64,000 bases of DNA from Narcine bancroftii. Its lineage: Eukaryota. The translations under genes and the position numbers were made by a program. The notes beneath the pieces were generated by a model, which was given only the letters and a program-made list of their open reading frames with translations, ran no database searches and was not told where the DNA came from. Of the stretch, positions 11,913 to 63,975 are shown in pieces. Where the stretch lies: the NCBI RefSeq assembly GCF_036971445.1, contig NC_091477.1, positions 11,966,001 through 12,030,000 on the forward strand, written 5' to 3'. The stretch's first letter is position 1. The number at the start of each line of letters is the position of its first letter.

Positions 11913-12243
11913 TCTTCTTCTTTCTTTGGCTTGGCTTCGCGGATGAAGATTTATGGAGGGGTAATGTCCACGTCAGCTGCAGGCTCATTGGTGGCTGACA
12001 AGTCCAATGCGGGACAGACAGACACGGTTGCAGCGGTTGCAAGGGAAAATTGGTTGGTTGGGGTTTTCCTCCTTTGTCTTTTGACAGTGAGGTGGGCTCT
12101 GCGGTCTTCTTCAAAGGAGGTTGCTGCCCGCCGAACTGTGAGGCGCCAAGATGCACGGTTTGAGGCGATATCAGCCCACTGATGATGGTCAATGTGGCAG
12201 GCACCAAGATCTTTCTTTAGGCAGTCCTTGTACCTCTTCTTTG
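11913..12243 (-). mobile_element. RTE LINE 3' fragment (same family as 3622-4818)
   Basis: Near-identical reverse complement of the ~4475-4815 segment; candidate TSD TTTGACT at 11906-11912 and 12240-12246. Confidence 0.9.
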
Positions 12244-14618: not shown

Positions 14619-14720
14619 TGCCTGTCCTGCATCAGACTTGTCAGCCACAAACGAGCCTGCAGCTGACGTGGACATTACCCCTCCATAAATCTTCATCCAC
14701 GAAGCCAAGCCAAAGAAGAA
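14619..14720 (+). mobile_element. Short RTE 3' end fragment
   Basis: Matches 4711-4815 including the GCCAAGCCAAAGAAGAA tail; inserted in an (AT)n run. Confidence 0.85.
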
Positions 14721-15787
14721 TATATTGCACCACCTTCTATACTCAAGTATGAGTTGATTTGCCTGTAAGCATTTCATTGCATCTTGATACACATGACAAT
14801 TCATTCAAACCTGGTTCAGAAATTTAGACAGATTACCATTTGTCCTATCAAATAATTCTAGAGTCTTCATGATTAACTATGAAGACCACAACTGATGGTT
14901 GGTATTGATATTATGAGCTTTACAAAAAAATGAAAGATCAGCCTACCTTTACTAAGTTTCTCTAATGAGAAAAATTTTGATCAATGAGAAAATAAAAGGG
15001 GATACTTAAGCTAAAGTTCAATGGTAACGTGGCAACCCCTCCAGCAGAGAAGAGTGTTTTACAATCACTAACCCAATAGGAAGCATTTTAGAAATGCACA
15101 CTCTGTAAGAGTACAGAACTGATCATTTGTTTTGCTGATGTGTAGACTCAATAGTAAATGGTACTCTGTGACAAAGTGTTGGATGTAGTGAAAATAAATA
15201 TATTCCAACAAGACATCACAATGACAAAGTGACAAGATAATTTCCATCGACTTTATTGGACTAAAGATTCCCTATTTTTTTTAAAAAAACAAGGAGAACA
15301 CATCTTGCAAGTAGTATGCAAAACAGAGGAATGTTTTAAGCAATAGATTGGTATTGTGTTTTATTCAATGCAAATTCAGTTCAGTGGATAACATTTGAGT
15401 CTAGCTGTTGATAAAGAGTTCAGATAGAAGAGTTTGCCAAGTGAGATGTGCTCATCTAATTAGACACGTTGTGTCATTAATGAAACAGACTTGTTGAAAA
15501 CTAGGCATTAATCCATCTGGTGGCTTGATACCACGTGCTGCTTGTTCAATCCTCAGATTTTTCAGAAATAATTTGGAGTAAAGGCCAAGCTCATCATTTG
15601 CTTGTCACCATCCACGGTAACAACTATTAGTCGAGCAGTTAATCCCATTGCTGGGCTTCAGCAGCAACATTTTGACAACTGGGTGGGATTTCAAGTTGAT
15701 TTCCCACCCTCCCATACTGCTCTTGCATAACTAGTGATTTCGGGTTCGCTGCATTGCCGCAAACATTTCAGTGTTTGTAAATAATAC

Positions 15788-15918
15788 CTTTAAAATTCGG
15801 CCTGATCCTGGCATCGTATCCTGATGTCCTGCCCATCAGCTTGTCCAAAAAATCCGACGGAGACGGGGGTTTGGTGGCAGCTCTCGCAGCTTGTACCTCC
15901 TTAGCCTCGGCCAAACAA
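15788..15918 (-). CDS. GLRA1: Glycine receptor alpha-1 subunit, coding exon 2 (131 nt)
   Basis: Encodes (S)[43 protein letters not shown](G), the hallmark GlyR alpha N-terminus. Polypyrimidine tract plus AG acceptor at 15920-15919 and GT donor at 15787-15786. Phase is compatible with exon 1. Confidence 0.96.
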
Positions 15919-17695
15919 CTGCGTGAAGGGACACAGACAAGAAAAGTCAAATCAAAAGGACGCCCCGAAAAGCAGTCACAAAACTTGCAAATAAAATCTA
16001 AACAACATTAATATTAGTATCAACGTCATGCAGAATATCGCAGTTCGTAAAACAAAACGTGGGCGTCCATAATCCCAATAGTTTTTTTTTTAACCTTAGT
16101 GAGAAGATATTGAATTTATTAAGATCTTGCTGTTCGCCTCTAACACAAATATATATATTTCCAGACCTCACAAGGTGTCACTTGATTTACAAACACCTGG
16201 TCGATGGAGCTTTCGGAAAGGAAGTCATTGCCACTAATATTTGGGACCATTAACGAGCTGGTTAATAATTGCTATTCTGCACGGGCTATACGAACATCAG
16301 GGCACATTCCCCCATGTTCAACAGCCTGAATCCACGACTCGCTCGAGTCTAAATACGAATCGAGGTCATTACTATTTGTTAGAGTTTATTTTAATTGGAA
16401 ACTGCCCGGATTTGACTAACTGTACACACTAAACGAGAGTTATTATGGAGCTTCAGTCTACGGTTATGCAACAGTCTGACCGAGAATGTGCAACATTCTA
16501 TTCCAAAAATATACGGTATACCCGAAGCACAACTTATTTCCCAAATAATAAAACAATCGTAGTTCTCCATTTCAAATGAGAAACCCTGGGAGAGATTTCA
16601 TTTTTACCAGAGGGTGCATACCTCAGTGTTTAGAGACCAATAGGTCTTGATCACCAGGGTTAACATCAAATTGCAAATCCAAAATGCACACTATTCCAGA
16701 TAATGTTGATGACTTCCCCACCAAATGTTTCACCTATATTTTCGGAGAGGCAGATGGGCAAGTAAAGGGGCGCTACCTCTCAAACGCCTTCTCCTAGCGC
16801 GTTACACACCGGGTGCCTTTAAATTGCAGCACGAGTATCAATGCGTTATTTGCCCCATTTGAAGTCAATCTTGTCCAAGGATTGCCACAAAATGATCAAT
16901 TGGAGATGAAAAATCAGACAACGCCTGTCCGATGGAGAGGGTCAAGAAGACGCTGGCTTTATTTTTAATTTCTTAATTGACGATGCGAAGGAATAATCAA
17001 GGTTTTTTTTTAAAAAAACGAACGATCAGCCTCGTTGAACCAAGTACAGCTTCCAGTTGACGCAAGAAACACTAAAACTTTCACATGCACATTCCAGAAA
17101 ACAAGCCCGTTGCACCAGAACATGTTGCCAAAAACAAAAGGATTATTGCTACGGAATTTAACATAATTAGGGTTAATTTCACCGAATGTACTCTTGAGGG
17201 TTGCAAAATCCGATTAATGAAAAAGTGTTTTAGACCACTGTCCACGTAATTAATTCAACAGCAAGAAGGGGCACGAAGTATTCCTTTTGAAGATTTTTTT
17301 TGTAAGGAGTTCCATACACAGTTGACATGTGGCGCAGTTCATGTCCCACCGATAGTTGGCGGTGTTGCCCACCGAGCAACACTCGACTGGCAGCTTCGCC
17401 GAGCCACAGATCACTGCGGTCTAATCCAATGCAGCACAATTAATATTGTGGCTTTGGCTGCACGGTCAGAAAACCGAAACGAGCTTACGGTCGTGTCCTT
17501 TAATGGTGATTCGGTAAAGTAAATCTCTTGAAACGGGCACCGTTCTCAATCGGAGAAAGAACAATAATCCTTTATCTTTTCTTCGAGATCAGAATTTTGT
17601 CCAGCAATCACGCATAGCTTTTGTATTCATTAAACCGGCTAGTTTTCATACTGCGAGTTATTTCAGTTATGGTAACAGTGCAAAGGCGACCTTAC

Positions 17696-17751
17696 CTGAA
17701 AAATACGATGGTCTCCCACAGGTAGAGGCGCAGAGCGGCTAAGCTGTGCAT
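17696..17751 (-). CDS. GLRA1: Glycine receptor alpha-1 subunit, coding exon 1 (56 nt, signal peptide)
   Basis: ATG at 17751 encodes MHSLAALRLYLWETIVFF, then AG|GTAAG donor. LRLYLWETIVFF matches the GLRA1 signal peptide (human MYSFNTLRLYLWETIVFFS), which identifies the paralog. Confidence 0.95.
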
Positions 17752-17804
17752 CTTTGAAGCCTGGACGATGTTAGAAAGTATTGTTGATGCAGGAGTCCAA
17801 TGGT

Positions 17805-17940
17805 NNNNNNNNNNNNNNNNNNNNNNNNNNNNNNNNNNNNNNNNNNNNNNNNNNNNNNNNNNNNNNNNNNNNNNNNNNNNNNNNNNNNNNNNNNNNNNNN
17901 NNNNNNNNNNNNNNNNNNNNNNNNNNNNNNNNNNNNNNNN
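17805..17940. other. Assembly gap (136 N) in the GLRA1 5' UTR region
   Basis: Run of N. Confidence 0.99.
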
Positions 17941-17989
17941 CAAGATCTCGATTCTTTTAGCGTCCTGGGATAGGTAATAACGTGATGTT

Positions 17990-18010
17990 TTCAGCACCCT
18001 GGACAGGTCC
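17990..18010 (+). promoter_or_regulatory. RE1/NRSE (REST binding site) in the GLRA1 5' region
   Basis: TTCAGCACCCTGGACAGGTCC vs consensus TTCAGCACCnnGGACAGnGCC. Both half-sites and the 2-bp spacer are intact. Confidence 0.88.
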
Positions 18011-19499: not shown

Positions 19500-19948
19500 A
19501 CTCTCTCTCGATAAGGCAAGATGCATGCCACGTTAAAAATTAGTGGCATCTCTCTCTCTCTCTCTCTCTCGATAAGGCAAGGTGCATGCCACGTTAAAAA
19601 TTACTGGCATCTCTCTCTATCTCTCCCTCGATAAGGCAAGGTGCATGCCACGTTAAAAATTAGTGGCAACTCTCTCTCTCTCTCCCTCGATAAGGTAAGG
19701 TGCATGCCACGTTAAAAATTGGTGGCAATTCTCTCTCTCTCGATAAGGCAAGGTGCATGCCACGTTAAAAATTAGTGGCATCTCTCTCTATCTCTCCCTC
19801 GATAAGGTAAGGTGCATGCCACGTTAAAAATTGGTGGCAATTCTCTCTCTCTCTCTCGATAAGGTAAGGTGCATGCCACGTTAAAAATTGGTGGCAATTT
19901 TCTCTCTCTCTCGATAAGGTAAGGTGCATGCCACGTTAAAAATTAGTG
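19500..19948. repeat. Minisatellite, 8 units of ~53-61 bp with an embedded (CT)n
   Basis: Unit (CT)n-CGATAAGG[C/T]AAGGTGCATGCCACGTTAAAAATT[A/G]GTGGCA. Confidence 0.95.
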
Positions 19949-20402
19949 AGATACACATGAATTAAAGTGGCATTGTGGAGCATGACTTTTACATGGAAAG
20001 TTAACTCCTGTGATTTGTTTAAAGATGTAAATACTGGGAGGCCCTGAAAAGATGGCGTGATCTGCTTAAACCCCTCGAATCTCTGCCCAAAACAGAAAGT
20101 GGTGCAAGTACCACTAGGTTCTTCTGTATTTGAGGAGAGAGAAGTAAATGCTTCAGGCCTAAGACTTTCAACCTGACGGTTCTGTTTTTTTAAAAAAAAA
20201 AGTTTTAATTTAGAACATTAACTCTTTCCACAGAAGCTACCTGAATTGTTGAGAATTTCCAGTATTTTGTTACAGATCTGCAGCTTTTAAAAAAAAAAAA
20301 TCGTCATTTGCCCACACATCTGTGAACACTGCTGCATGTGGGTATTCAGACCAGCTGCTAACCTGGGTGACAAGCTGACCTGTGTTTGATTACCTGCCTC
20401 TT

Positions 20403-21354
20403 CCTACCCCACCCTGCCCCCTACCCCACCCTGCCCCCTACCCCACCCTGCCCCCTACCCCACCCTGCCCCCTACCCCACCCTGCCCCCTACCCCACCCT
20501 GCCCCCTACCCCACCCTGCCCCCTACCCCACCCTGCCCCCTACCCCACCCTGCCCCCTACCCCACCCTGCCCCCTACCCCACCCTGCCCCCTACCCCACC
20601 CTGCCCCCTACCCCACCCTGCCCCCTACCCCACCCTGCCCCCCTACCCCACCCTGCCCCCCTACCCCACCCTGCCCCCCTACCCCACCCTGCCCCCCTAC
20701 CCCACCCTGCCCCCCTACCCCACCCTGCCCCCCTACCCCACCCTGCCCCCCTACCCCACCCTGCCCCCCTACCCCACCCTGCCCCCCTACCCCACCCTGC
20801 CCCCCTACCCCACCCTGCCCCCCTACCCCACCCTGCCCCCCTACCCCACCCTGCCCCCCTACCCCACCCTGCCCCCCTACCCCACCCTGCCCCCCTACCC
20901 CACCCTGCCCCCCTACCCCACCCTGCCCCCCTACCCCACCCTGCCCCCCTACCCCACCCTGCCCCCCTACCCCACCCTGCCCCCCTACCCCACCCTGCCC
21001 CCCTACCCCACCCTGCCCCCCTACCCCACCCTGCCCCCCTACCCCACCCTGCCCCCCTACCCCACCCTGCCCCCCTACCCCACCCTGCCCCCCTACCCCA
21101 CCCTGCCCCCCTACCCCACCCTGCCCCCCTACCCCACCCTGCCCCCCTACCCCACCCTGCCCCCCTACCCCACCCTGCCCCCCTACCCCACCCTGCCCCC
21201 CTACCCCACCCTGCCCCCCTACCCCACCCTGCCCCCCTACCCCACCCTGCCCCCCTACCCCACCCTGCCCCCCTACCCCACCCTGCCCCCCTACCCCACC
21301 CTGCCCCCCTACCCCACCCTGCCCCCCTACCCCACCCTGCCCCCCTACCCCACC
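20403..21354. repeat. C-rich/G-rich VNTR: about 14 x 17-mer then about 40 x 18-mer
   Basis: (CCTACCCCACCCTGCCC)n switching near 20635 to (CCCTACCCCACCCTGCCC)n. Confidence 0.97.
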
Positions 21355-21464
21355 AGCTGTTCTTTTCCATGGGAGATGCAACTTGCAATCCAGCAAGCAG
21401 TTTGGATGTGTAAAGCATGCAGGTTACGTTTCAAAGCTCTAAAATGGGAACAATTAATGATGCC

Positions 21465-28094: not shown

Positions 28095-29240
28095 CAAAAT
28101 TCAATTTATTGTCATTGTAATAAAATAGTGTCACATTACAGGAAATTGGTTTTGCCTGCTGTAAGTGTAAGGTAAAACATCATGAGATGGGAATGTGTAA
28201 GGAGTTACCCTGTGCAGGGCTGTAACAAGATGTGAATGCATCCTTGTACTTACAAGATAAGAGAGACATTGATGGATTGAGAGGCAGGAAGCTAGCAGGG
28301 AAAGGATAGCAACAGTTTTAGTCATTGGACAAGTAATGATATGATGATGTTCTAAGCACGTATCCAAGGGTATAAAAAAATCACCATTTTGCTGATAACG
28401 GCAGAATGCATTCTCCGACTAACATTGTTAGTTGCAAGTGTTACAATCCGGTAATAAAGAACAAAGAACCCTGATTTCGACTCAGTCTGGTGTTTGTCTC
28501 ACTCATTCATGAACAAAGCAGACCTAACATAAGGCAGACAGACTCGCCATCAGCAGAAATTAACTGAAGCACCTCCTACAATTAGAGAAAGAGAGCCCTC
28601 CCAGAGTCACCAAGTTTCCATAGATTTGCCTTCAGCACTTCCACAGCCACATACAGTCCAGTCCAAACCATAGGCAACCCGAGCTCCAGATCCAAACCTC
28701 CGGCATGGTCAGGAACTCTTCAGCACCTTCGGCACTCCCTCGCATCCCGGTTCCTATACCTGGTACCCCTTCAGCTAGTTTTTAGCCAGTCTCCAGCAGC
28801 CCTGACCGCAGTCTCCAGCAGCCTGCAGCCTCCACGGGTTCCTCGCCTCGAGTCTCCAGCAGCCTGCCAAATGCACGGGTCTTTCAGCCACAGAGCCCCC
28901 CTCGCTGGCCCCGTGGGTTGTCACCCTGCTTCTCCTTCTCAGACGGGGGATTGGTGTTCCCGTTTTCTGATGCCCTGCTCCAGTCCTCCGCTGCCCTGGA
29001 GTCCGCAACCCCTTGCAGCTGCTGCCGATCGGAGGCGCCACCCTCTTGGGTGCAGAGTTGCGGTTTTTAAAATAAAACCACTGTTGTCTCCTTTAACGGG
29101 CTTTTCAAAGCCCGTGTGGAGCTGACAACAATTGGCTGGGCGGTTGGACGCCATGGGAGGACTGTATCTCCACTCCTCGCTCCCCGTGGGTTCGTACCAG
29201 CACTGCTGACATAGTGGCTCTTGCAGCGCTGCCATTGTTT
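28095..29240 (-). mobile_element. Non-autonomous retroelement with GC-rich body and Rex1-like tail
   Basis: Homologous to 62690-63180 on the plus strand (GCTGCTGGAGACT repeats; TGACAATAAA..TTGAAT tail). Interrupted by a solo LTR. Confidence 0.65.
28166..28529 (+). mobile_element. Solo LTR (Gypsy-like), 364 bp
   Basis: Termini TGTAAGGT...ACCTAACA; 4-bp TSD TAAG at 28162-28165 and 28530-28533; internal TATAAAA and AATAAA. The empty site is visible in the homologous host element near 63105. Confidence 0.88.
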
Positions 29241-30344
29241 CATGAAAATTTTCATTTCCAGTTGGTAGCAGCAGTTATTTGAAATTGGAGAAAGATTGAC
29301 TGATTAAAAAATGGATAGTTAGCCTTGAACTCATTAGAATACCAGCTGCCTTATCACTTGAGGGGCTCTCTAACGTCCTAACATAGCAATTGGATAATTC
29401 CTTTGATACTCTTCATAAGTAGTAGGGGTAGTGAATCCCGTTACGAGCCACAGTTAATTAAGTCAATTGAGTGCAAGACCAAAATGCCTTGTGACTAATA
29501 TGGATAAAATTTCTCCAATGTACGTGTGTATTGCTGGAGGATCGGCCAAATATCCATAAGACCATGACAAGCAGAGTATTAAGATGATTTTTAAAAAAAT
29601 GCAAAGAGATATCTTAGTGGATGAATAACACATGTATGAATAATAGGATTTGGAAAGTTGTACAAAACTGCAAACAAATCTATTCATCTGCAATGTATAG
29701 GCTATGATATGAAATAATAATTTAGGCCTATCAAATTAAAATATCTGATGCTACTTGGCTGCAATACGTTGGAACAATAATCAACAAATGACACTTTTGA
29801 ATTTTGATTTCAAAAAGGCCCTTTCAAGCCTTTATTGGGGTTTATCTCAGGTGGCTAATAAAGAATTGTAGTTTCCACTTGGCAATAAATTATCACTAAG
29901 ATTATTGACAAGACAAAATTACCCCATTCTCAATCTGTTCTCTGTTTCAATGTTGAATATTGATTGTTGTACCAAATGTCATCGATTTGAATGGTATCTT
30001 GTTAGCACTGCTGAATCATATTGTCTCGTGCACTGCCAGACTGAGACCAGTCGCAAGATGGAGGAGCAACATCTCACCTTCTGTCTGGACCTCATTGTCC
30101 ACATTGACTTGAAGAAGGCCTCAGGCCTGAAGTGTCGGTCATGTACCTTTACCTCCCATTGGTGCTGTTCCTCTAGCATTTCTTTGTGTTTTTTACTGCA
30201 ATCACCATATCTGCAGACTTCTCAGCTTCACTCCTCGGGTATATTTTAAACCACTATCATTAAAGTTGGGGTAGATGCAGACATAAACGGGACCCAGTGA
30301 GCATGCATTTATCCTCGGCATAACTATTCCTAGATTATTTGATA

Positions 30345-31617
30345 ACTGGACCACAAAGATTTTGTTTCCTGAACACTTTTGGGTGTATTTTATGGATTTT
30401 GAGATGCTGATCATGAAAATCACCTCAAAGCTTAAAATATATTTTTGTGATTTACTGTCCTATTTAAGTCTACTAGTACATTGCCCACAAAGCAAGCTGT
30501 TTTGGTCCGTCATGACACAGCCTGCCTGTGTATGCACTCAGTGCAGGTTTGAAGATCTGCTCAAGAGGCTGGAGAAAATGGCAAAGAAGGCATTTAAAGA
30601 TGTTGTTGATAATTTTCTTGGTAACCATGAGAGCACCAAACTCACAACATGCTTCAAGCATACAAAACCAAAAACATTGAAAATTCATTTTCTGTATTTG
30701 CATTTGGACTTCTTCCCTGTTGATCTTGGTGCAGTCAATGACGAACATATGAAAGATTTCACCAGGCCATTAACTATGGAAAAGTGGACTCCATCAATAC
30801 TGGCTGACTATTGTTGGGCCCTGACATGAGAGGCATGAGATGCTGAGTACAAATGAAAATCTGCAGCAAAACATTTTTAGGTCAGTTGAACTAATGTGAC
30901 GTGTCAGTGTTATTATGTGATTTTCAGCAATCTCCTTTGAAGAAGACCGCGGAGCCCACCTCAGTGACAAAAGACAAAGAAGAGGTACAAGGACTAGTTA
31001 AAGAAATCTGCCTGCCACATTGACCACCGCCAGTGGGCTGATATCGCCTCCAACCGTGCATCTTGGCGCCTCACAGTTCGGCGGGCAGCAACCTCCTTTG
31101 AAGAAGACCGCAGAGCCCACCTCACTGACAAAAGACAAAGAAGAGATACAAGGACTATTTAAAGAAATCTGCCTGCCACATTGACCACCGCCAATGGGCT
31201 GATATCGCCTCCAACCGTGCATCTTGGCGCCTCACAGTTCGGCGGGCAGCAACCTCCTTTGAAGAAGACCGCAGAGCCCACCTCACTGACAAAAGACAAA
31301 GGAGGAAAAACCCAACACCCAACTCCAACCAACCAATTTTCCCTTGCAACTGCTGCAACTGTGCCTGCCTGTCCCGCATCGGACTTGTCAGTCACCAACG
31401 AGCCTGCAGTAGACGTCGACACACCCCTGCATAAATCTTCGTCCGCGAAGCCAAGCCAAAGAACTTCAATAAAAGTTAATTTAATGTTTCTCCAACTTCC
31501 TACATGATGCAACAAATCTGAAATTATCTTGGTGTTCAGATTGAAGTTGTTTACCATAATCCCCAATTTTTTTTTCAAGAAGCAAACCTTTTGGGAAAAA
31601 AATATTGTTGTCCAGTG
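30345..31617 (+). mobile_element. Internally deleted Chapaev3-like DNA transposon
   Basis: Transposase C-terminal remnant LKIHFLYLHLDFFPVDLGAVNDEH..ILADYCW; ends ACTGGACCACAAAG / TTGTTGTCCAGTG followed by TAA; homologous to 55768-56219. Confidence 0.72.
30925..31463 (+). mobile_element. RTE 3' fragment with an internal 161-bp tandem reiteration, nested in the Chapaev3-like element
   Basis: CAGCAA.CTCCTTTGAAGAAGACCGC recurs at 30925, 31086 and 31247; normal RTE tail at the 3' end. Confidence 0.92.
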
Positions 31618-34050: not shown

Positions 34051-34278
34051 GTTGCAGCACCTAATAGCCTGAATACACCTGAGGTTGTCTGATTTCTGAG
34101 CTAAGCAGGTCAGTACTTGGAGGGGAGACTGCATGGGAGCACCAGGCGCTGTAGATTTCTGTGGGGGGTGCTGGACAAAATGGTGCCTCTCTGCCTGTCT
34201 TGTGGTAGACAGAGATGAAGAACTTCATGTATGTTACATTCTAAATGTAGTGTTATGTGACAATAATGGAACCTTTAA
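34051..34278 (+). mobile_element. 5S rRNA-headed SINE (SINE3-type)
   Basis: 34051-34154 aligns to vertebrate 5S rRNA (CCTGAA..GTCTGAT..AGCTAAGCAGG..AGTACTTGGA.GGGAGAC.GC.TGGGA..ACC.GG.GCTGTAG), followed by a ~125-bp body/tail shared with 46061-46192. Confidence 0.85.
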
Positions 34279-35704
34279 CAATATAGGTTTTCTGGGTGGG
34301 GTGCGTGTACATGTATGTTGGGGATAAAAGCTTCACATCTTCCTATCCATTTATAATAATTACATGCGAACAATTGAGAGTGAACACTTCCTGCACATAT
34401 TGCATAATGCATAAAACTGTAACCCTATATATATAATAAAAAAAAGGTTTATGCCTCTAATATGCTTAGTAAATAGAGTGATTATTTCCCCTTAGAAATT
34501 ATGAACTACACTGTAATGCTAGGTGGGGCTAATTTAAGCTGTTGTTACATTCAATATAGCCTTTAATGTTTCAGTACATTCTCTCAAATGTCTACTCATC
34601 CACCAGGAAATGAGTGCTTGAAACTTTCTGGGGACAGAAAGAACATTGCCAGTGTAAAAACAAGACATCTTGGATTTATGGTAAATCCTGAGTCCCTGAG
34701 AGGTGTACCTGTTTCCATCTGTGTTTCTTTAATTATGGTTGAAATGTGTGACTATTGGAATTCATCAAACATCATTTACTTCTGCATAATGAATAGAGCA
34801 TTCATATTTTGCATGCTGTAAAATTCATTCCTGCAGAATGATTAAAAAGGTACAAGCTCTGACATTTCTATAAAGACCGAGGCTTTTTTAATTTGTTGCT
34901 GGAAGCCTCAATATTATTGCTAATTTACAAATATTTGTGATGTGTCACTGCAATTGCTGAAGTACATTTTTATTTACAGCCAATATCCTGCACCTGATAC
35001 CTATCAGTTCAACTGAAAACAGACTTCAATATTGGTGTGATTTATTCCCTAATATAAAATTTGGGTACTTTTTAAAAAGAATTTCTCGCTGCCTTCATCT
35101 GCATTGTTATTCACTAAATCAGGGTGTGTGTAAAATTCCTGCCCTTGAGTTTGTGACTTGATGAACTTTGTTTTTGATGGATTAATTTTGGGGTCTGGAA
35201 ATCTCTGGCAAGGGGAGCATTTATTGAACATCCCCAAATTGCGCTTGAGAAGGTGGTAGTAAACCTGTGTGGTTCTGGAGAAGATGCACCGTTAGTCATG
35301 TTAGAGGGGCAGCGCAAGAAAAGTAGAAAATAACTCTTGGCTCAAGAAATCCACAGCTGAGTTGATTTTTTTTCTCTCCTGACGTCGAACATTACAGGCC
35401 CTTCAGCCTGCAATGTTGTGCCGATCTTTATAAAACTTCCCAGTAACAATCTAACCCTTCCCTCCCTCAGTGCGCATAAACCTCTATTTTTCTTGCATCC
35501 GTGTGGTATCTTTTAAATGCCTATATTGTACCAGCTTCCATCACCAACTATGGCAATGTATTCCAGGCACCCACCACTCTGTGCATATTTAAAAAAAAAA
35601 TACACACCTCTGATGTCTCCTCCAAACATTCCTCCACTCACCTTAAACAGATGTCCATTAGTATTGGCCATTATCACCCAAGGCAAATGATGCTGCCTGT
35701 GGAC

Positions 35705-36975
35705 CAAAGTCAAAGATTTATTGTTAGAGAACATACAGGACATCATGTATAACACTGAGATACTTCTTCCTGTGGGTGAGGCAGAAATTGGTAGTGCAAA
35801 AAATTTACTTAAAAAGATACATATGCATGTAAATCAAGAAAGAAACATCAACAAACTGCAATACTGACAGGAAAAAAAATCAATAAAGTGCAAAAGTAGG
35901 AGTCCTTAAATGAGTCTCTAACCCCTTTTACACTTGCATCCCACTAAATCGACCGTTCAGTTACCCAGGATAGGAAGGGTGTTTTTTGTTGTTCACTCTT
36001 GACCACTCCTAACTGGTACACGGAACGCATTCACACTTGTAAGGAGCTATCCCCGGGATTAGGACTGTTCTACCTTCTACTGATGATGTCATGACACATG
36101 GAGCAATGGTGAACCTGCCCTAAATCCTGATCAATGTATTATGATCTTGTATGTGACAAAATTAATAGTACCTAATTATAACATTATTAAGCTTTATTTA
36201 CAGCACAGTATGAGCCCTGTTGTTGATGTGCCGATCTATATAAACCTTTATAAAGGACTGTGGGAAAGTGCGAGCAATGCATAGCAATAACATATAATTT
36301 TTAAAGAGGGTGGGAAAGTTGGTAGCGCTATTGCACACAATATATAAATACCCTGGAGGGGGGAAAAAGCGATGGTGGACCTTCTCTCTCCGAATGCTGT
36401 GCGGCAGAGAAAGGGCTGTATGCGTGAAGCACTCATAGAGATGTTTCTCTGCCACTCGCATTCTGGGAAATCGTGTCTGCCATCACATTTTTCCACGGTC
36501 TTTATAAATTGTGCGCTATAATGCTACCAACTTTCCCACACTGTTTAAAAATTATTTATTGGTATTTTCTCTCTCTCTCCCATCCCCCTACCCACTGCAA
36601 CTTTCCCATGGCAAAGTTTATTCCTTTATATTTTAACCTTTTCTTCCTTCATGTTCCTGCACTTGTGCAAAAACTTGGGTCATTTCTATCCCAGAATGCA
36701 ATTGCCCTTTCTATACTTGCTTGATTGCAACGCTGGTGTCTACAGATGCCAGCAATTGTGCTGGGGTCGAGGCCATCTATCCCCAGTGTGACATGACGTC
36801 ATCTCACGCCGGCATTAAGAAGATTTTCCTTTCACACTAGACTCTTTTTAGGCCGTTAATTCCTGGGACCACTTGCAAGTGTGAAAGGGGCTTCTGATTG
36901 AGTTTGTTGTTAAGGAGTCGGATAGTGGTGGAGTAGAAGCTGTTCCTGAACCTGGTGGTGCGAGTCTTATGGCCT
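35705..36975 (-). mobile_element. Rex1-like LINE 3' end, split by the Harbinger MITE
   Basis: Homologous to 46225-46530 and to the reverse complement of 41500-41810. Confidence 0.75.
35920..36892. mobile_element. PIF/Harbinger-like non-autonomous DNA transposon, 973 bp
   Basis: 19-bp TIR AACCCCTTTTACACTTGCA / TGCAAGTGTGAAAGGGGCT; 3-bp TSD TCT at 35917-35919 and 36893-36895. The empty site is seen in other copies of the host LINE. Confidence 0.85.
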
Positions 36976-39900
36976 ATCCTGATCTATATCTCTCAGATTC
37001 ATCGAATTATTTTTCTTCAGTTTTATTTCTAGTATCATGAAATGTTGGGGGGAGGGGGGGGGATTAATTTTGCCATTGACAAATTGACTTCGATCTTTGG
37101 ATATTTTTGTATGTTGAATTGCCTCCATTTAAGACTTTTTAAATAAATTGTAAAACTTGCTGTTGAGGAAATGCTTCTGGAAGCTGAAACATAGCAATGA
37201 TGAGAGATGGACCATTTCAAAAAGCGTATGATTCACGAAACACTGCCAAAGTCGCACTGTAACAAAGTGTACTGGATAAAGGAATGAAAATCATAGAACA
37301 GTAACATTAAAACAAAAAATGCTGGAAACTCTGAGGCGGTCGGGCTCCACCTATGCATGTATGAATCGGAGTTAATGACTCAGTTTGAACACTTGTCAGA
37401 ATTTAAAGCAAAAGATCTGAAGAAAGTTCTTCGACCGGAGGCGTTGACTCATTTTTGTTTGTCCTTCCACAGATTCTGCTCAGTGCTTCCAGTATTTTCT
37501 GCATTTTGATTGTTATTCGAACAATGTGCCACGTCTTCAGTTTTAAGGTGTATGCTTTGATATTTGTGTGGCAAAAACATATAAACATATTTTGAATAAA
37601 TGGAATTATTCACCAGCATAGTTACTTTGCAACATTTAAACTCTTGGTGTTAGGGCACACTGCCACTTGAGGCTAATTTCTTTGTTTCATAAAACAGGCT
37701 GCTCACCTTAAAGAATCACTCCAAGACAGGCCCGATAATAATCGTTTTATACCCTAAAGGCCCTGCGTTGTCTCTGAAAATGCAGAGTGTGGTTGGAGGT
37801 GTCCACTCATGGGCAGCATGACTGATGCGTCGCTCTGCGATCTGCAGAACTGTTTTCCTTCATCCTTTCAGACTGGATCTGCAGATGTCACCTTCATATT
37901 TTACCCTGTCTCTCAGCAATGAGAAAATTCTGTTATTTTTATGCTTATCTCGAGATGAAGGCAATGAGAAAATGTTTTGGGTCTATTATTTTATGATTAA
38001 CAATATATTTTGTGTTTTAAAACTATATAAGCAATGACACTCTGGAATTGTATGTCTGGTCAAAAAACTGTGTTGTCTGATGTAAGAGTTCCTGAGTGCA
38101 ACAGATTTGCAATTCTCTCACTAAGCTCTTTGTACTTGAATCAAAATTCCCTATTAAAGTCTGCTGAATCCAACACTAATAAGAATTTAGACAAACTGAA
38201 AAATGCACACACCAGCAGAAATTTAAAGACTTTATAATAAATTTAAACTGTTTATATTACTGCAATATAAAAATGTTCTACCTTGTCTGCATTCGCCCAT
38301 CATTCCTATTCAGGAAACATTCGTATCTCACCCGCTTTGAGTACCTGGTGTAATAATACTAAATCTTCATCCATTATTCAATCAGGAATCTGTCATTTCT
38401 TCTTTGAATTGTCAAATGAAATCCACCTTCATTGTCCTAAAAGCTATCCATTTGCTAAGTTTACAACTAAGAAATAAATGATCACTATTCAAGTTGTGAC
38501 AACTTGTCAAGTGGTTTCAATCTGGGCTTTAAATTCCAATAACTCTGAAGCTAGTTCCACCTGGTTTTCCTCTTGATGCTCCTTCCATCTCCTGGTCTGA
38601 CGACTGGAGCATAGCTCACCAATGATTTCACTGCCTCCTGGAGCCTTTCAGTGACTGCAGGCTATGTCTAACCTGGCCTCACATTTGATGGTCACTAACT
38701 GAGATTAGCTGACAACATGCACTTGTTTTGAAACTCAAATTGTGGTGATGTGACACTAGATGAAAATTGGAACTCCTGCGACCAGCGAGAAACTATTTAA
38801 ACCTTTGCAGACTATAGATAAGTTGTGAGGAATAGTGGAACAAGCTAAAGGGAGGGAGGAGAAGATGGGGAAAATTGGAGGTCTCCATTGACCGGTCATC
38901 AGAACAGTTAGCAAGTTCCTGAATCTTGATTATTTTTAATCCCCCCTTGATGGCAACACATTTCCTTTAGATTGCAATGTATGGGTTAATGCTTAAAAAC
39001 AAGGCTGGGGTTCATGAAGTTCTCTGAGCAGTTGGCAACGGCATAGTTTCTGAACAATGCAGTTCTAATTTACTGAGCATGGGACTACAAGGTTGATTTT
39101 TATTTCATTTCCCATTGCCCAGATTTCAGTCACAACAAGGTTGAGGAACAAGTCAGTTTAAAATCTATTTATTGTTGATTATTGACCTGTGATTTTTTTT
39201 TTGTTTTAGGACATCAGCAAGTTTTTGAATCTTTCAGTGCAACTTTTTGTTTCTAGCAAAAGAGTGGTTTACTGACTCAAGTATGAGTAATAAAATGACA
39301 TATCTCCTTTGCAATCTAACTTTTCAATCCTCAGTTCCTCACATAAGGAATAATTTCCAATTGTTTTCAATGCCAATTGTTCCCATAGGACTGCCAGCCA
39401 TAATATTAAATTACAAATTAATTTTCTTATTCGTCAGTTTCTTTTTCACTTGTGGTGACCAGTAATTGGAGCTGAAAATACTTTGTGATTTCAAGGATGT
39501 TCTCATTGAATCTTATTTCAGTAAGTGGCACAAACATTCCTGTTTTGTTTTTTTTTTTTGCTGGATAACTGGGCCACGATTTCCTTGTTACGTTCCTGGC
39601 AAGGCTCCATTCCTGGATGCAAGTATCAGGAGTGTTTATTTTTCAGTTGTCCAGGAATAAACAGAGGCCCAGCAGAAGGAGCCAAGATGGTCTTTCTCAA
39701 TCATTCCCTCTCCAATGCAAGTGTCTGTTCTGCACTGAAATAAATGCATACTGAAAACTGGCATTTGGTTGTGAAATATGGAGCCCATATTTACAAACTG
39801 TTGGTATTAAAATTTAAATGAATCTTGAGCATTGCCTTTCTACCATCGGTCTCTATGAATATATATATATATATATAAAAGAAGTGCTCCTGTGACCCTT

Positions 39901-40549
39901 TCCCCTTTCCCCTTTCCCAGTGGGAGAGGGGTGGGGTGGATTTAGAGGAGGTTTTTTCTTTTTGTTTTTCTTTTTGTATATAAAATACCATATGTATTTG
40001 GATTAAGTTTGAAATATGTCTGTTAAGTGGTTTTATATTAAATAAAATTTTAAAAAGCTTGCATTTGGGTTTATGCCAGTCATCTCCAGATACTGGAGAC
40101 AGTGGTTAACATCAGTACTTATGATCCTTGGAAGCAGTAAATAAGCTGTGGAACACAAGAACCAAGACATAGAAGTTGGAGTTGGTACATTGGCCCCATA
40201 AGTGCTCCGCCTTTTAACAAGATTGTGGCTGATCTTTTAGTTCGGCCTGGTTTTCTGTGCATTTCGTGACTTTCGATATCCAAAATATTATTGGTTGCTC
40301 TCTTAAATATCGTCGGTGATTGGTCCTCCACAGCTTTCTTGGACAGAAAATTCTAAAAATTGGCAAAGGAAATTCTCGTATCAGTCCTGAACGATTTGCC
40401 CTTTGTTTTGAGAATCTGACCGCTGGTCTAAACAGCCGCACATCTATCGTGAGTTCCAAAAAGAGTTGGTTTCAAGTAAATCTCTTACTTCTAAACTCTG
40501 AGGAATATACCTCCTGGGCGGTGGAGATTCCAGATTAAAATGGAAACAA

Positions 40550-41810
40550 CAAGGGACAACTGACAGCTGGGGCAGAGTCTAAATGCCATAACCTGCTACA
40601 AAACCGGTGAAGTCGCAGACGGCAAAGCTTCACTCCAAATGGAACTTAATGACTTTTACACCCGATTTGATGACAGTAATAGCAAATAAACATCCCTCCA
40701 CATCCTCACGTCCCCTGCTGATCCCTTCCTGTCCGCATCTGAGGATGACGTTTGCTGTCTTCAGGAGAGTGAATCCAGGAAAACATCTGGCCCAGATCTA
40801 ACCAAGTATTAAAAATCTGTGCAGACAAACTTATCAATGTATTCACAGATATCTTCATTATCTCACTCCAGCAGGGTATGCTATCCACCTGTTTCAAACA
40901 GGCGTCAATCATACGATGCCCAAGAAGAGTGCAGTAATCTGCTTTAATGACTTTCGACCAGGAGCACTTACATCAACGGTGATAAAGTATTTTGAAAGCC
41001 TGGTGTTGAAGCATATCAGCTCTTCTCTGAGCAGTGAATGGATTATATTCTAGTTTGCATATTGTAGCAGCAGCTCTAAGGCAGATGCCATCTCACTGGC
41101 TCAACACGAACACCTGGACATTAAAGAGCATCCTGATGAATGCATCTTTATTGACTACAGTTTGGTATTTAACATCATCATCCCCTCAAAACTGATCAGC
41201 AAACTCCAAGACCTGGGACTCAACACCCGACTGTGTAATTTCCTTACTTCTGGACCGCAAAGTGTGCTGACGAGCTGCATCACGGTCTGGTATGGGGACA
41301 CCAATACCCTTGAGTGTAAAACGGTGCAAAAGGTAGTGGACAAAGCCCAGGACATTAAAGGCAAAAACCCTCCCCACTATTGAGTACATCTACAGGGAAC
41401 ACAGCTGTTGGAAAGTAGCAGCAAGCATTAAGGGTCCATACCACCCAGCACATTCTCTGTTCTCGCTGCTGTCATCAGGAAAGAGGTATAGATGCCACAA
41501 GGGTCTCACCACCAGGTTCAGGAACAGCTGCTCCCCCTCCACCATCAGAGTCCTCAACAACAAACTCAATCAGGGACTCATTTAAGGACTCTTACTTGTG
41601 CACTTTATTGATTTTAAAAAAAAAAAATTCTCTCTATATTGCACAATTGGTTTGTTTACATTCATTATCTGTTTACAGTTCTTTATTTATTTACAAGTGT
41701 ATGCTGTGTATGGTTATTTTATTTGCGCTACCAATCCTGCCTGGCCCACAGAAAAAAGGAATCTAAGTTGCATACGATGTCATTGTATGTACTCTGACAA
41801 TAAATTTGAA
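40550..41810 (+). mobile_element. Rex1/Babar-like LINE, decayed with internal deletion
   Basis: FRRVNPGK, DIFIISL..CFK, NDFRP.ALTS, FIDYSL.FNIIIPSKL, LTSCITVWYG motifs and family tail. Confidence 0.8.
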
Positions 41811-42560
41811 GACATACTCCCTGTTCAATTTCACCACAAAGGACAAACCCCCCCTCATTCCAAGAATCAATCTGTTGAACCGTTGTTATATTCCCTCTGT
41901 TTCCTGGGTAAGAATGCCTGATATGCATTTTGCCAATCTCACTAGAATTGTATATATTTTTAATGAGATGTCTTTAGTCTTGTGTTTAATCCTTCTCTCA
42001 TTGAATGCCAAAATACTCTTGCCTTTCTAACTTAATTGCTGTACCAATATATTGATGTTCAGTGATTCATGTACAAAGACACCCAGGTCACACAATTACC
42101 TTTCAATCACTGCTCTCACATTTTTTTTACATTCTATTCAAGCTGCCATGTTTTTGGCCATTTACTTTCTGCTCTACAAGATCTTGAAGTCTTTCTACAT
42201 ATTCTTCCTACTTGTGCTGTCACTCAACTATGTGGAAAGATTACACTTGTTCATTGTCCAGTCATTGATTAAAAATAGAGAATCCCTGCACTGATTCTTG
42301 AATCACGGTGGTTTCACAGCTTCGTTTATCTTTACTGTTTTTGAGCCATTAGCTAATCTTCAATCAATGAGAATATATTACCCTAATTTCAGCTGTTTTA
42401 ATTTTGTTGAATAATCTCTTGTGAGCCATGTTATTGAAGATGTTTCAAATTTGCAAATGCATCATGTCCACTGATTTCCCTTATTTATTCTGGAAGTTGC
42501 AGTCTCAAAATTGAGAACAAATTTCCTGAACATGATTTCCTTTTCACAAGTTCATTGGGT
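41810..42560 (-). mobile_element. Decayed CR1 fragment
   Basis: Reverse-strand degenerate RT segment (QHEFV, KHLQ..H.RL, GKSILAF). Confidence 0.55.
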
Positions 42561-42869
42561 AGCTTTCCCTCCCAGGGGGTGATTTGTTATCTAGCTTTGC
42601 AACTTCTCAAGCAGGCATGAGAAGAAAGGGATTAAACAGGAATGACTGTGATTATGCTGCAAGATTCATAAGTGCTGGAGCGACTCAACACATCGTTCAG
42701 CATCCATGGGAAGTAATGAATAACCAATGTTTCTGGCCTGATCTCGTTGTCAGGGTGTGAGCAAAAAGCAGACAGGCACCTGAATAAAAAGGTGGGAGAG
42801 GAGAGGATGGAGGAAGGGGCAAGGGGAGGAGTACAGGCTAACGGGTAAAAGGTGGATATGGGTGGAAGG

Positions 42870-43804
42870 TGTAATGGATTTGTATTAACCTTTAATATTA
42901 AACAATAATTTATTTTTATAAAAAATGTCTTAGTAAATTATAGAGTTAAAATATTGTATCTGTATTCTTTGTAAGTTAGCTGTCGGTTGGTACAGGGTTA
43001 CAAGCAGGTCACAGCACATTTATAGAGAACCATTGTTTTCTGAGAAGAGTGTTCATTCTTTGAGTCAATGTGTCTTGGACAGACAGAGCTAATAGATTTC
43101 AAGTGGGTCCTTTTGAGAACTGCTGAAGGAAGCCATCTGTTTTTAATCAAAGCCACATAAGCCTCTTGAACAGAAATGAGGTCAAAAATTGTTATGGATA
43201 TGGAATGGTTTTGAAAAAGAAACAATTTTTGATAGAAATAAAACTGATGGTCACATGGTTTATAAGAATTGGAACTCACCTCAGTGATGATGTAATGTCA
43301 CATGATTTGGGGAAATAAATTACTAAATTCAGACATTTTGAAAGAATTACATTTGGAGAGTATAGAAGTTAAAATCCCCGTGACAAAGGAGTTGAAACCT
43401 TGTGAATGATTGGGTTGAGTTACAGTAACCAGAACTGGTGCTGTTGTTAGTGTGCTACCTCTAGGGAAAAAGGAACATGGAATCAGTGGCTTTTGAAATA
43501 AGGAAGACCATTTCACTGTCCCTTTGGGAAAAGAAGACCGATTTCTACTGGGTCTATTTTTGTGTGGCCACTTCATCTGGTTTGTGACTTCATTGTGGAA
43601 GATGATAACCACATTTGTTTAACCCTTGTCTCAGTATGTGGTTATTTTATTCCACAATGTGAGTAAAAAAACCTCAAGACATTATGTTTAAAAGTGCTTT
43701 ATAATTATTTCTGAACTGAGAATTTAAGACCTTCAAGCAAGATTAAAATGATGCTGAACTTTTTAAAGATTGACTTTTCAGTGTGGGACTTTAATTATGC
43801 ACGT

Positions 43805-43864
<60 letters not shown>

Positions 43865-44016
43865 GGATTAATGTTAGAGCTAAGTAAGTTTAGAGATGAG
43901 TAATAGATGTGTTATTAATAGTTTAATAAAAAAAACGATTATTTTGAACTTACTATTGTCTGGTGATTTTTCCATTGCTGTTCCTGTGTTAGTGCAAACA
44001 AAAACCCTTCATAACA
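42870..44016 (+). mobile_element. Probable solo LTR (~1.15 kb) inserted in a Penelope-like remnant
   Basis: TGTAATG...CATAACA termini, AATAAA near the 3' end, and purine-rich Penelope-type flanks continuing on both sides. TSD not clean. Related sequence at 61885-62290. Confidence 0.6.
43807..43861. repeat. (CA)n microsatellite
   Basis: About 27 perfect CA units. Confidence 0.98.
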
Positions 44017-44794
44017 TTGGAGAAGACACAAAACTGAGATTGGGGTGGGGGTAACTCCCTGAATGGAGTCGTAATGGGGGTGGGGAGTTGGAGGAAAGGG
44101 ATGAGGAAATAGAGACTTGAGGGGAGGGGTTTAATAGAAACCAGAGAAGTCCATTAATACCTTCTGCTTGGAGGATACCCAGACAGAATAAGTGTTGTTC
44201 CTCCAATTTGTGGGTAGCTTTGTTTGGCAGTGCATGATGCCAAAGATAGACATGTTGATGTGGGAATGGTGTGTGGAATTAAAATGGATAAGAGTTGGGA
44301 TTGTGGCAGTCTTGCAAAGATGTATTCGAGTAATCAAGGAGAAAAGTGGTATCCCTCCCTAGCACAGCAGTTTAGGATGTGGGTCATGTTCAGTGCTAGA
44401 TTGTGCTTGCCTCATTTTTTTTTAGGGAGCTGGCAAATATGTCCTGCTCATTCTGTATCTCATTTTGGATGTTCTCACCTCCCATTAAAGTGAGTAGGAG
44501 GTCAAGTACTGACGCACTGATCTGGGGATGGACTCTAGTCCAGTGGCAGAGCAATGATGTGCTGAGAGGAGGAAAGTATGGAAACTGCATCTTATCCCTA
44601 GGTTTCACATGGATGAGGTTGTGGACCCTGTAGAGAAAAGGATAAGTGATATAAATCATACTTCACTTTAATGCTGCCAGAATTGGCTGACCTTCTGTGT
44701 CTGTAACAGATGAGTTCCTGGTACAGAGATTCAGCCCAGTTGCTTAGTTACCATTCTGACAACTCAAATAAGAGGGAAAAAATAGTTCTGCACA

Positions 44795-45640
44795 TAGAAC
44801 CTTGGAACCATACAACATTTCAACAGAAAAATGCTCTTTGGCCCTTCTAGTCTGTGCCAAACTAATTTTCTGCCTAGTTTCACTGACCTGCACCCAGTCC
44901 ACATCCTTCCATACCCCTCCCACCCTGTCGAAATTGTTCTTGAATGTTAAAATTGAGCCCACATTCACCACTTCAGCTGGCAGCTCATTTGACACTCCCA
45001 TCACTCTCTATGTGAAGAAGTTCCCCTTATGTTCCCACTAAACTTTTCCCCCTTCACCCTTGACCTATGTCCTGTGGTTTGTATCCCACCTACCCTCAGT
45101 GGGGAAAAAAACTTGCTTGCATTTACTCATCATTTTAAATACCTTTATCAAATTTTCCCTTATTCTTTAATGTTCTAGGTGGAAAAAAAAAGTCCTAACC
45201 TGTTTAACCTTTCCCTGTAACTCAGTTCCTGAAGTCTGGGCAACATCCTAGTAAATCTGTTCTGCATTCTTTCAATCTTATTGATATCTTTCCTGTATTT
45301 AGGTGACCAAAATTGCACACAATACTCCATATTAGGTCTCCTACAACTTTGTCATAGTATCCCAACTCCTATACTCTGATTGATGAAGGGCAATATGTCA
45401 AAAGCTCTCTTTAAAACCCCATCTACCTGTGACGCTACTTTCCGGGAACTATATCCAGTATCTATAATTCCCTAATCCCTCCGTTCTACTGCACTCTTTG
45501 GTGCCTACTGTTTACCATGCATGACCTTTTTAGGTTTGTCCTTTGGAAATGTAATACCTCACACTTGTCTGTATTAAATTTGATCTGCCATTTTTCAGCC
45601 TGTTTTTCCAGCTAGTCAAGATCCCTCTGCAAGCTTTGAA
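44795..45640 (-). mobile_element. CR1 LINE 3' portion
   Basis: Reverse complement of the WQIKFN.DKCEVLHF, EYCVQFWSP and NFFT.RV segments plus a GGTTCTA-type tail. Confidence 0.8.
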
Positions 45641-45987
45641 ACTCAAGTAATTGCAATACATTTTTTTGCTCCAACTAATGACAATTTGTCACATTGATAA
45701 TTTCAATTTAGGATTTCAATATTTTCTAGTAAAAATAAATCTGGATTTAGCAATTTGCCAGCCATTGAATGTGATTTTTTTTTTACCCCTGTGAGCCGTT
45801 TTGTCAAGAATTTTGAGGCAGGGCATATTTATGGAAGGTAAAATGAGGAATAAGACGGGTCGGAAAAAAAAAGAAATACAGGCTATGGTGATATGTAATT
45901 ACCCCACTAGGTCACCAGGGGTCATCCCGGTGATCTTGTATATAAAGCAGTCCAGAGCTACGGTCTAGCCTTCCAGGTGCGTACGGA

Positions 45988-46192
45988 GGTTCTGATAGTT
46001 CAGTGGTTAGAGCACTGGCCTTGTAAACCAGGAGTTGTAAAGTTGTTCCTCACTGGGTCTGATTTCTGTGAGGGGCACTGTACAAAGTGGTGACTCTCTG
46101 TGTTCCTTATGATAGACAAAGTTAAAGAATTTCATGTATGTTACATTCTGAATGTAGTATTATGAGACAATAATGGTACCTTGGCTTTACCA
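45988..46192 (+). mobile_element. tRNA-Thr(TGT)-headed SINE
   Basis: 45988-46060 aligns to tRNA-Thr (ATAGTTCAGTGGTTAGAGCACTGGCCTTGTAAACCAGG) with a decayed T-arm. The body is shared with the 5S-headed copy at 34155-34278. Confidence 0.85.
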
Positions 46193-46224: not shown

Positions 46225-46950
46225 TAGATTTCAGATTTCAAATTTATTGTCAGAGTACATTCATGACATCACATACAACTCTGCAATTTTTTTTCCTGCG
46301 GTGAGGTAGAATTGTCAATTATTGGTAGTGCAAAAAAAATGTACTGAACTTACACATGGTAACAAATAAATGTAAACAATCTGCAATACAAAGAGAAAAA
46401 AACCAACAAAGTGAAAAAAGTAAAAGTCCTTAAGTGATTCCCTGATTGAGCTGGTGGTTGAGGAGGAGTCTGATGCCGGAGGGGTAGCAGCTGTTCCTGA
46501 ACTTGGTGGTGTGAGTCTTGTGGCATCTATACCTCTTTCCTGATGGCAGCAGGGAGAACAGAGCATGTTCTGGATGGTGTGGATCCTTGATAATTGCTGC
46601 TGCTCTCTGACAGCTGCATTCCCTGTCAATTTCCTCGATGGTGGGGAGGGTTTTGCCTGTGACATCCTCTGCTGTGTCCACTCCCTTTTCCAGGGCTTTA
46701 CACTCAGGGGAATTGGTGTCCCCGTGCTAGACCATGATGCAGCTGGTCAGCACAATTTCCATTACACATCTGTAGAGATTTGCCCGATGTCATACCAAAC
46801 CTCTGTAAACTCCTAACGCAGTAGAAGCACTGATGTGCTCTCTTCTTCATGTGTTGGGCCCAGGAAAGGTTGTCTGAGATAGTGGTTCCCAATAACTTAA
46901 ATTTGCTCATCCTCTCCACCTCTGATTTCCCCCAATGATCACTGGATCGG
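46225..46950 (-). mobile_element. Rex1/Babar-like LINE 3' portion
   Basis: FKLLGTTISDNLSW and IIKDPHHPEHALFSLLPSGKRYR motifs; TGACAATAAATTTGAAATCTGAAATCT tail. Confidence 0.85.
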
Positions 46951-62689: not shown

Positions 62690-63180
62690 ATCTCCATAAC
62701 TAGATCCAGGTTCACTGGAAGTGCAGGAATTGTGCAGCGGAGTACCACTGAAGAGCTCTGGAGCTGAGGAACACACAGGCAATGGGCTGTTGGTGACTTG
62801 AGTTATGGAACTCGCACAGGCTGTGGGCTGCTGGAGACTGTGGTCGAAGGATTCACACCAGGCAGCAGACTGCTGGGGACTGGTTCGAGACTGGGACGCG
62901 AGAGGATGCTGAAGGGTTCCTAATCATTTTGGACATTTGGATTGCCAATAGTTTGGACTGGAGTCTTTGTGGCTGCAGAGGCTGCAGGAGCGCTGGACGT
63001 GAATCCACGGACACTCGGTGACTTTGGAGGGACTCTCTTTTGCTTCTCCTTTTCTGACTATAAGAGGTGCCCAGCAATTCCTGCTGACGGTGAATCTGTA
63101 TGCCTTACAGCAGACTAAAGGAAATTTCATGTAATATTACATTATTTTTTATTGCATGACAATAAAGGAATCTTGAATTT
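62690..63180 (+). mobile_element. Non-autonomous retroelement, relative of 28095-29240
   Basis: GGGCTGCTGGAGACTG motifs and AAATTTCATGTAATATTACA..TGACAATAAAGGAATCTTGAAT tail. Confidence 0.65.
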
Positions 63181-63817
63181 TTGAACTAATCATTACATTT
63201 TCTACATTGCAACACCAGTACTTCTCCAAAGCACCTTTAGGACTTTAGGTCAAGCATTTGGCATATCCTAAGATCAAGAAAGACATTGCAGAAAATCTTT
63301 AATGAGGAACAGTTCATTGGGTGACATATCAAATGGTTTTCTTATCGATGGGATACTTATTGGATTCAACATTTATTGCCGGTTCCTAATTGCCCCAGAA
63401 ATGATGGTTGTGAGACCATTTCAACTGCATTACTCTGGAATCGTATATAAGACATACCAAGTAAGCTTTAGGGCAGTTGAGTTTTTATGATTATGCAGTT
63501 GATGTATGGCCACCATTTGTGTCATAGCATTTTATTTCGTGTTCATTTATTAACTTGAGGAACTGGAATTTGGATATCCCTGTTGCTGTGAGGGTATTCA
63601 AACTCGTTGACAGATCAATGGTTCAGGCTCTTAATGACTTAACCATTAGGGTTCTGCAACCTTCTGAGGCAGGTATCCCAGAATGAGACAAATGAAGATC
63701 AAAAATTCGAGAAGGAAATAATGCGAGGCGCTTTTACATAGCCTGAATTATTCATCAGTCAGGAGAAAACAGAATGCTGCATAAAGCTTTAAACGATATT
63801 TCAGGTGTAACACTACT

Positions 63818-63975
63818 TCTTTGGCTTGGCTTCGCGGACGAAGATTTATGGAGGGGTAAATGTCCATGTCGGCTGCAGGCTCGTTTGTGGCTGACAAGTC
63901 CGATGTGGGACAGGCAGACACGGTTGCAGTGGTTGCAAGGGAAAATTGGTTGGTTGGGGTTGGGTGTTGGGTTTT
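63818..63975 (-). mobile_element. RTE 3' fragment
   Basis: Reverse complement of ~4650-4810; 6-bp TSD ACTACT at 63812-63817 and 63976-63981. Confidence 0.9.

Follow-up and report, generated by a model that had tools for sequence, protein, structure and literature searches.

A stretch of 64,000 nt from the Narcine bancroftii genome (NC_091477.1, positions 11,966,001 to 12,030,000, forward strand; hereafter the window) holds two short interspersed elements (SINEs) that carry different RNA polymerase III (Pol III) heads, one derived from 5S rRNA and the other from tRNA-Thr(TGT), on one common body (Table 1). A comparison within the window aligns positions 34154-34275 with 46061-46182 over 122 bp at 83.6% identity (E = 5e-33), which bears out the body of ~125 bp described in the first-pass annotation of this DNA, and no other sequence of the 64 kb matches the body at that level. 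The homology had also been said to start right at the end of the head; more exactly, the common part begins at TTTCTG (34156 in the 5S-headed copy and 46063 in the tRNA-headed copy), and the “GA” preceding it in both copies is a coincidence, as the two family consensuses read GG and CA there. The proposed identity of the heads holds as well, since they align end to end with the 5S array and the tRNA-Thr(TGT) genes L241, L244, and L245 of the same genome. Their Rfam scores are weak (5S_rRNA, 17.9 bits, E = 0.48; tRNA, 21.2 bits, E = 0.06) because both copies are decayed, and ARAGORN reports zero tRNAs in the window. The 5S-headed copy agrees with its family consensus at 202 of 232 aligned bases and the tRNA-headed copy at 179 of 204 (87-88%). 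Judging from the sequence, both are probably dead, given the 11-nt loss in the control region of the former and the decayed B box of the latter.

Table 1. Elements of the SINE pair and of the related R family in the window
Feature	Position	Strand	Remarks
5S rRNA-derived head, SINE3 type	34053..34155	+	11-nt deletion (box A end and intermediate element); family-type box C change
Shared LINE-derived body/tail, 5S-headed copy	34156..34277	+	Ends in the conserved GACAATAA motif, then a short ACCTTT-type repeat
tRNA-Thr(TGT)-derived head, SINE2 type	45986..46062	+	tRNA part from 45988; anticodon 46022-46024; A box near intact; B box decayed
Shared LINE-derived body/tail, tRNA-headed copy	46063..46189	+	tRNA-family states at both diagnostic sites
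R-family copy (~865-bp non-coding LINE-like element), 5′-truncated; 3′ end homologous to the SINE body	62744..63181	+	
R-family copy, near full-length, last ~75 nt missing	28530..29243	-	

The two copies represent two dispersed families. The 3.33-Gb genome contains at least 798 candidates for the SINE body, and a 28-nt motif from the body start has 848 exact matches genome-wide, with none for the reversed control. The first 70 of these 848 matches, all on contig C1, comprise 46 copies with a 5S head, 21 with a tRNA-Thr head, and three headless ones, a count that was also automated, with three secondary hits and one merged duplicate to be allowed for in the automated version; a chance singleton for either combination is thereby excluded. 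Selection by the tail instead (30 of 447 loci) returns 16 5S heads, nine tRNA heads, and five loci without a scorable head. A SINE-specific motif of the 5S head has 404 exact matches, and the body is present in 28 of 30 such loci, the other two breaking off within the head. No third head type was found among the 70 body-selected loci, the 30 tail-selected loci, and 30 loci selected for G at the first diagnostic site described below. Sorted by head, the loci fall into two classes with one junction each, small deletions in individual copies aside, in line with the earlier suggestion of two sister families, each with a fixed junction.

Both families together number roughly 10,000-20,000 copies. 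The estimate from recapture between motif sets is ~14,000-18,000, and four body matches in an evenly spaced 600-kb sample correspond to ~22,000 (Poisson range 6,000-57,000). Non-CpG divergence is 7.7% in the 5S family (40 copies) and 6.7% in the tRNA family (18 copies; p = 0.26), values that are underestimates because the copies were chosen by exact motif. The activity of the two families fell at about the same time, and both are decayed now. Target-site duplications of at least 7 nt flank 5.7% of 140 copies compared to 1.4% of mismatched pairs, and none reaches 10 nt. The body also occurs at ≥80% likeness in 3,047 and 2,432 contigs of two other organisms and in one contig of a third; part of these matches may be R2, the related repeat introduced below, rather than the SINE. 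A sequencing run that we guess to be RNA has 489 contigs with the SINE body, which is uninformative on expression. Four 3-kb loci (L006, L068, L089, and L149) hold two SINE copies each, above the genome-wide density, and insertions of these SINEs are possibly clustered.

The 5S-headed family is ~245 bp long. Its consensus head and the 5S gene of the same genome agree at 103 of 116 aligned bases, the head having 13 substitutions and one insertion; box A and the intermediate element are unchanged, and the family contains linked subfamily markers (p = 2e-9). A test of whether the changes in this head stabilize its fold gave p = 0.04, which we do not count as support. The T4 terminator of the gene is shortened to three T in this family, so that Pol III would read through the body, and neither family consensus contains a T4 run. 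The tRNA-headed family, ~205 bp long, has a consensus head that differs from the tRNA-Thr(TGT) gene only by an extra base inserted into the 5′ acceptor strand and by an A58-to-T change, and this head is still predicted to fold as a cloverleaf. The three tRNA-Thr(TGT) genes named above are three of the seven exact matches of the head motif, and the four bases that follow the tRNA in the SINE are those of the trailer of the genuine gene L245. Promoter boxes are present in both family consensuses. The 5S-derived head with its predicted internal control region is that of a SINE3, and the tRNA-derived head with its predicted A and B boxes that of a SINE2. The 5S-headed elements form a dispersed, uniform chimeric family with diagnostic changes and are not plain retrocopies.

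Some copies have unusual 5′ ends. In two 5S-family copies on C1, L078 and L119, the reverse complement of the head's own 3′ end stands in place of its first ~30 nt, the 5S family consensus has a lengthened terminal stem, and a 5′ GA extension pairs with the junction in seven of 14 scorable tRNA copies; these features suggest fold-back or quasi-palindrome copying. The 5S array itself, on C15 (L161-L180), has its genes unevenly spaced over ~260 kb, and its 20 copies fall into five sequence variants.

The body was traced to a repeat family, R, which was found by a low-stringency search both in the window and in many SINE flanks and has at least 7,461 candidates genome-wide. R is ~865 bp long, often 5′-truncated, has a consensus without a long open reading frame (ORF), and ends in a terminal 7-nt repeat; AAGATGGCG-type motifs and at least two tail subfamilies are seen in it. 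The main subfamily aligns with body positions 35-121 at 73% (E = 4e-11). The consensus of a second subfamily, R2, obtained from the unselected 600-kb sample and from flanks, aligns with the whole SINE body, collinear and with one 4-nt gap, at 107 of 131 aligned bases (~82%); the alignment score is 168-175, the shuffle maximum 79-83. Since R2 covers the whole body, each SINE is a Pol III head set directly on the terminal ~130 nt of an R2-type element, and a middle domain is absent. The body forms a single contiguous block on the 3′ end of R/R2, rather than the separate pieces of 5′ and 3′ untranslated region (UTR) of a long interspersed element (LINE) that make up an RTE-type bipartite tail, and a central domain of Deu, V, or CORE type is absent, judged from the zero sequence between the head and the R2-derived part. 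The 3′ end is a typical SINE end, common with a non-LTR retrotransposon and closed by a simple repeat, here of ACCTTT type. Read-through from the 5S spacer or from a tRNA trailer was rejected as a source of the body, as neither contains matching sequence (20 5S-array loci and the trailers of three tRNA-Thr genes).

The terminal layout points to the LINE that may have copied both families. The SINE tail has a predicted hairpin, then the GACAATAA motif and a short repeat, and LINE ends with PF09004-type C-termini in this genome (eg, L220) have the same layout of TTTCATG, loop, TGACAATAA, and short repeat. Rex1 elements are reported to have a conserved 3′ UTR with an oligonucleotide run behind it (PMC6274825). 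We infer that a Rex1-type LINE mobilized both SINEs. Candidates for the partner itself were rejected: almost all of the 30 best PF09004 loci belong to a single family, the tail of which is unrelated, and L291, in which the end of an ORF adjoins an R-type tail, is a nested insertion, as the 39 other matches end at the junction and the UTR of the host continues beyond the tail. The R 5′ fragments L373 and L408 lead into no LINE ORF, and an ORF antisense to R and three short decayed LINE fragments gave no Pfam match. In the window, positions 46237-46950 (- strand), adjoining the tRNA-headed SINE, and 41231-41810 (+ strand) are decayed 3′ ends of Rex1-type LINEs whose tail family differs from that of the SINE.

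The relationship between the two families can be read from their bodies, the consensuses of which differ at two sites only. At site 1, G and T are found in 81 and three of 93 5S copies, and in none and 43 of 47 tRNA copies (Fisher p = 1e-30; the remainder are other letters or gaps). At site 2, runs of four and three A occur in 39 and 13 5S copies and in none and 29 tRNA copies, scorable copies only. An independent set of 30 loci selected for G at site 1 consists of 21 5S copies, one tRNA copy, five truncated copies, and three of R type. In R, taken as the outgroup, 26 of 30 copies carry G at site 1 and the state at site 2 is the four-base one; the R2 consensus has G and A4. The body start is the same in both families, a 4-nt stretch of R2 is missing from both, and the two tRNA-type states occur together in one 5S copy (L013). 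As the 5S family keeps the parental state at both sites, the tRNA family is likely derived from it. We therefore read the pair, with a probability of about 0.62, as sister SINE families with a common 127-bp LINE-derived 3′ end, of which the tRNA-headed one likely arose from the 5S-headed one by a single head swap, both being likely copied by the reverse transcriptase of a Rex1-type LINE.

The same body differences bear on the rival histories. Two independent births, in which a short headless derivative of the R2 tail with the SINE-type changes captured 5S RNA once and tRNA-Thr once, would account for the three headless copies among the 70 body-selected ones, for the absence of any sequence common to the two heads, and for the trailer of L245 behind the tRNA, which is expected if the body joined a precursor tRNA or inserted behind the gene. 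Against this, the flanks of the headless copies are unrelated and their 5′ ends do not coincide, and copies are often truncated close to the junction (six of 57 that were selected through their 3′ part start within 12 nt of it); moreover, two derived states found in a minority of 5S-family copies are uniform across the tRNA family, and we regard separate births as unlikely. Less likely still is a swap in the reverse direction, with the tRNA-headed SINE coming first and the 5S family stemming from an early tRNA master before the derived changes were fixed. Although tRNA is the commonest SINE head (PMC7245038), one tRNA-headed copy (L277) has G at site 1, and the ages of the families are indistinguishable, this history requires an ancestral tRNA subfamily with G/A4 of which hardly any copies remain (0/43, and 1/22 under selection for G), and the 5S family is the larger and more structured one, its head being further from its gene (13 substitutions and one insertion vs one and one).

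The first-pass annotation had also considered the tail as a module that repeatedly joins abundant Pol III RNAs, in which case the copies would be chimeric retrocopies and not self-propagating families. Chimeric small-RNA retrocopies are known (PMC7245038) and 5′ ends are mildly clustered at the head/body junction; yet 130 loci chosen regardless of head yield two head types only, with one junction per family, which refutes this idea just as it does the chance singleton, the heads have fixed changes absent from the genes, and head type is linked to the body sites. The shared diagnostic changes leave the repeated-capture explanation largely refuted and its probability very small.

Several points weigh against the preferred history, a single 5S-to-tRNA swap with a Rex1-type partner. 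Its polarity depends on two sites, of which one is the length of a homopolymer, and no more than nine rows, some of them partial, went into the R2 consensus. The headed copies in the 600-kb sample are both of tRNA type with none of 5S type, against the 2:1 ratio of the census, though n = 2. Both heads have fixed changes within their promoters: box C of the 5S heads has T changed to G in 84 of 90 copies, and the B box of the tRNA heads has A58 changed to T in 39 of 46, both with a putative effect on transcription. As to the partner, that PF09004-bearing LINEs constitute the Rex1 clade is our assumption. The SINE tail hairpin is no more stable than shuffles (z = -0.5), where R has z = -3.2 and eight LINE tails range from +0.6 to -1.4. 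An ORF-bearing LINE with the SINE tail was found in none of the 30 top PF09004 loci, nor among 14 R-like loci with ~4 kb upstream of each, and no LINE ORF lies upstream of the tail matches in the 600-kb sample; the partner may therefore be rare, extinct, or diverged.

The history that we favor would have run as follows. The starting point would be the 3′ end of R, with which the body is collinear, R2 being the closest subfamily; a full-length 5S RNA would have been joined to such an R2-type end, probably by template switching during target-primed reverse transcription, a route that has been proposed for head addition (PMC5786205, PMC7245038). The families have a single body start in common, as well as a 4-nt deletion when compared with R2 and, with two exceptions, every consensus site. 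A master of the 5S family with both derived states would then have exchanged its head for tRNA-Thr(TGT), and with it a type 1 for a type 2 internal promoter. The clustering of 5′ ends near the junction hints weakly that the base of the folded head stalls the reverse transcriptase; a template switch at this point could produce a clean swap. Both families colonized thousands of sites at about the same time, without long target-site duplications, and the terminal hairpin, the GACAATAA motif, and the short repeat may together form the recognition signal for the partner LINE.

Elsewhere in the window, tandem arrays occupy 19501-19948 and 20400-21400, one with a period of ~57 bp and the other a long minisatellite that is rich in C and strongly GC-skewed. 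An open frame of 433 aa that matches RVT_1, presumably RTE-like, lies at 3457-4816 (+ strand), with related pieces at 11918-12243, 30925-31463, and 63817-63975. Several copies of the 3′ part of this element in the window are ~90% identical, and the LINE family to which it belongs is comparatively young.

Inferences of head exchange between SINEs usually concern families that are old and diverged. Here the two bodies differ at two sites, the genome still contains both source genes and the family that donated the tail, and the body occurs in other species, so that the order and timing of the swap are testable. As the tail is identical under both heads, type 1 and type 2 Pol III promoters can also be compared directly in their role as SINE drivers, and thousands of decayed 5S-like and tRNA-Thr-like heads could inflate counts of rRNA and tRNA genes in such genomes. 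The SINE3 partner clades named so far are CR1, I, and RTE (PMC7245038), to which a Rex1 partner, if true, would add another. A more far-reaching reading, which we put forward tentatively and hold to be somewhat less probable than not, is that this is the first 5S-headed SINE and the first SINE2/SINE3 sister pair mobilized by the Rex1 clade, having originated in the 3′ end of a non-autonomous and abundant element of Rex1 type, with a swap that can be polarized from 5S to tRNA and dated across related species, the A58 change in an otherwise near-intact tRNA head marking the minimal step from tRNA gene to SINE head.

The annotation had further said that no description of the pair was known to it. 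This stands in so far as the literature searched, with Repbase, Dfam, SINEBase, most subscription journals, and supplements outside the search, has no account of it and no description of a Rex1-type tail on a SINE3, and the accessible portions of PMC10886601, PMC9004415, and 10.1101/2025.06.08.657570 hold nothing on this pair; the families are probably new as families. It does not stand for the configuration, which has been published for other animals (PMC5786205, PMC3747384).

Among vertebrate SINEs, the DeuSINEs (SINE3, AmnSINE1, OS-SINE1, and SacSINE1) include 5S-headed elements with tRNA-headed relatives, and the V-SINE HE1 is known from sharks and rays, but these have CR1-type tails and Deu or V central domains (PMC3747384); for a central domain the Narcine families, whose whole body maps to the R2 tail, have no room. 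The only Rex1 pair in the table of that source is SINE2-5_NV with Rex1-24_NV of a sea anemone, compared here by table row; it has a tRNA head only, unlike the Narcine pair (PMC3747384). Both heads served by one partner LINE in one genome are seen in Ped-1 (5S) and Ped-2 (tRNA/ID) of the springhare, where the partner is BovB of the RTE clade and the tail is bipartite, unlike in Narcine (PMC3747384). The moth elements HaSE1 (tRNA) and HaSE3 (5S) likewise have a common 3′ sequence under either head, but their tail is RTE-derived and HaSE1 contains a central domain, whereas the Narcine pair has no middle domain (PMC5786205). In the coelacanth, a vertebrate too, one genome contains both a SINE2, CoeSINE4 (tRNA), and a SINE3, CoeSINE5 (5S), whose LINE-derived 3′ sequences resemble each other (PMC5786205). 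All three of these pairs are RTE-type (PMC5786205, PMC3747384), the 3′ part of CoeSINE4/5 being assembled from RTE 5′ and 3′ UTR, in contrast to the single contiguous 3′ end of a non-coding family, with Rex1-type terminal layout, in Narcine. Unlike in CoeSINE4/5, the two Narcine bodies differ from each other at two consensus sites only. The head swap is a process already known, and a possible Rex1 link is the sole feature that goes beyond precedent.

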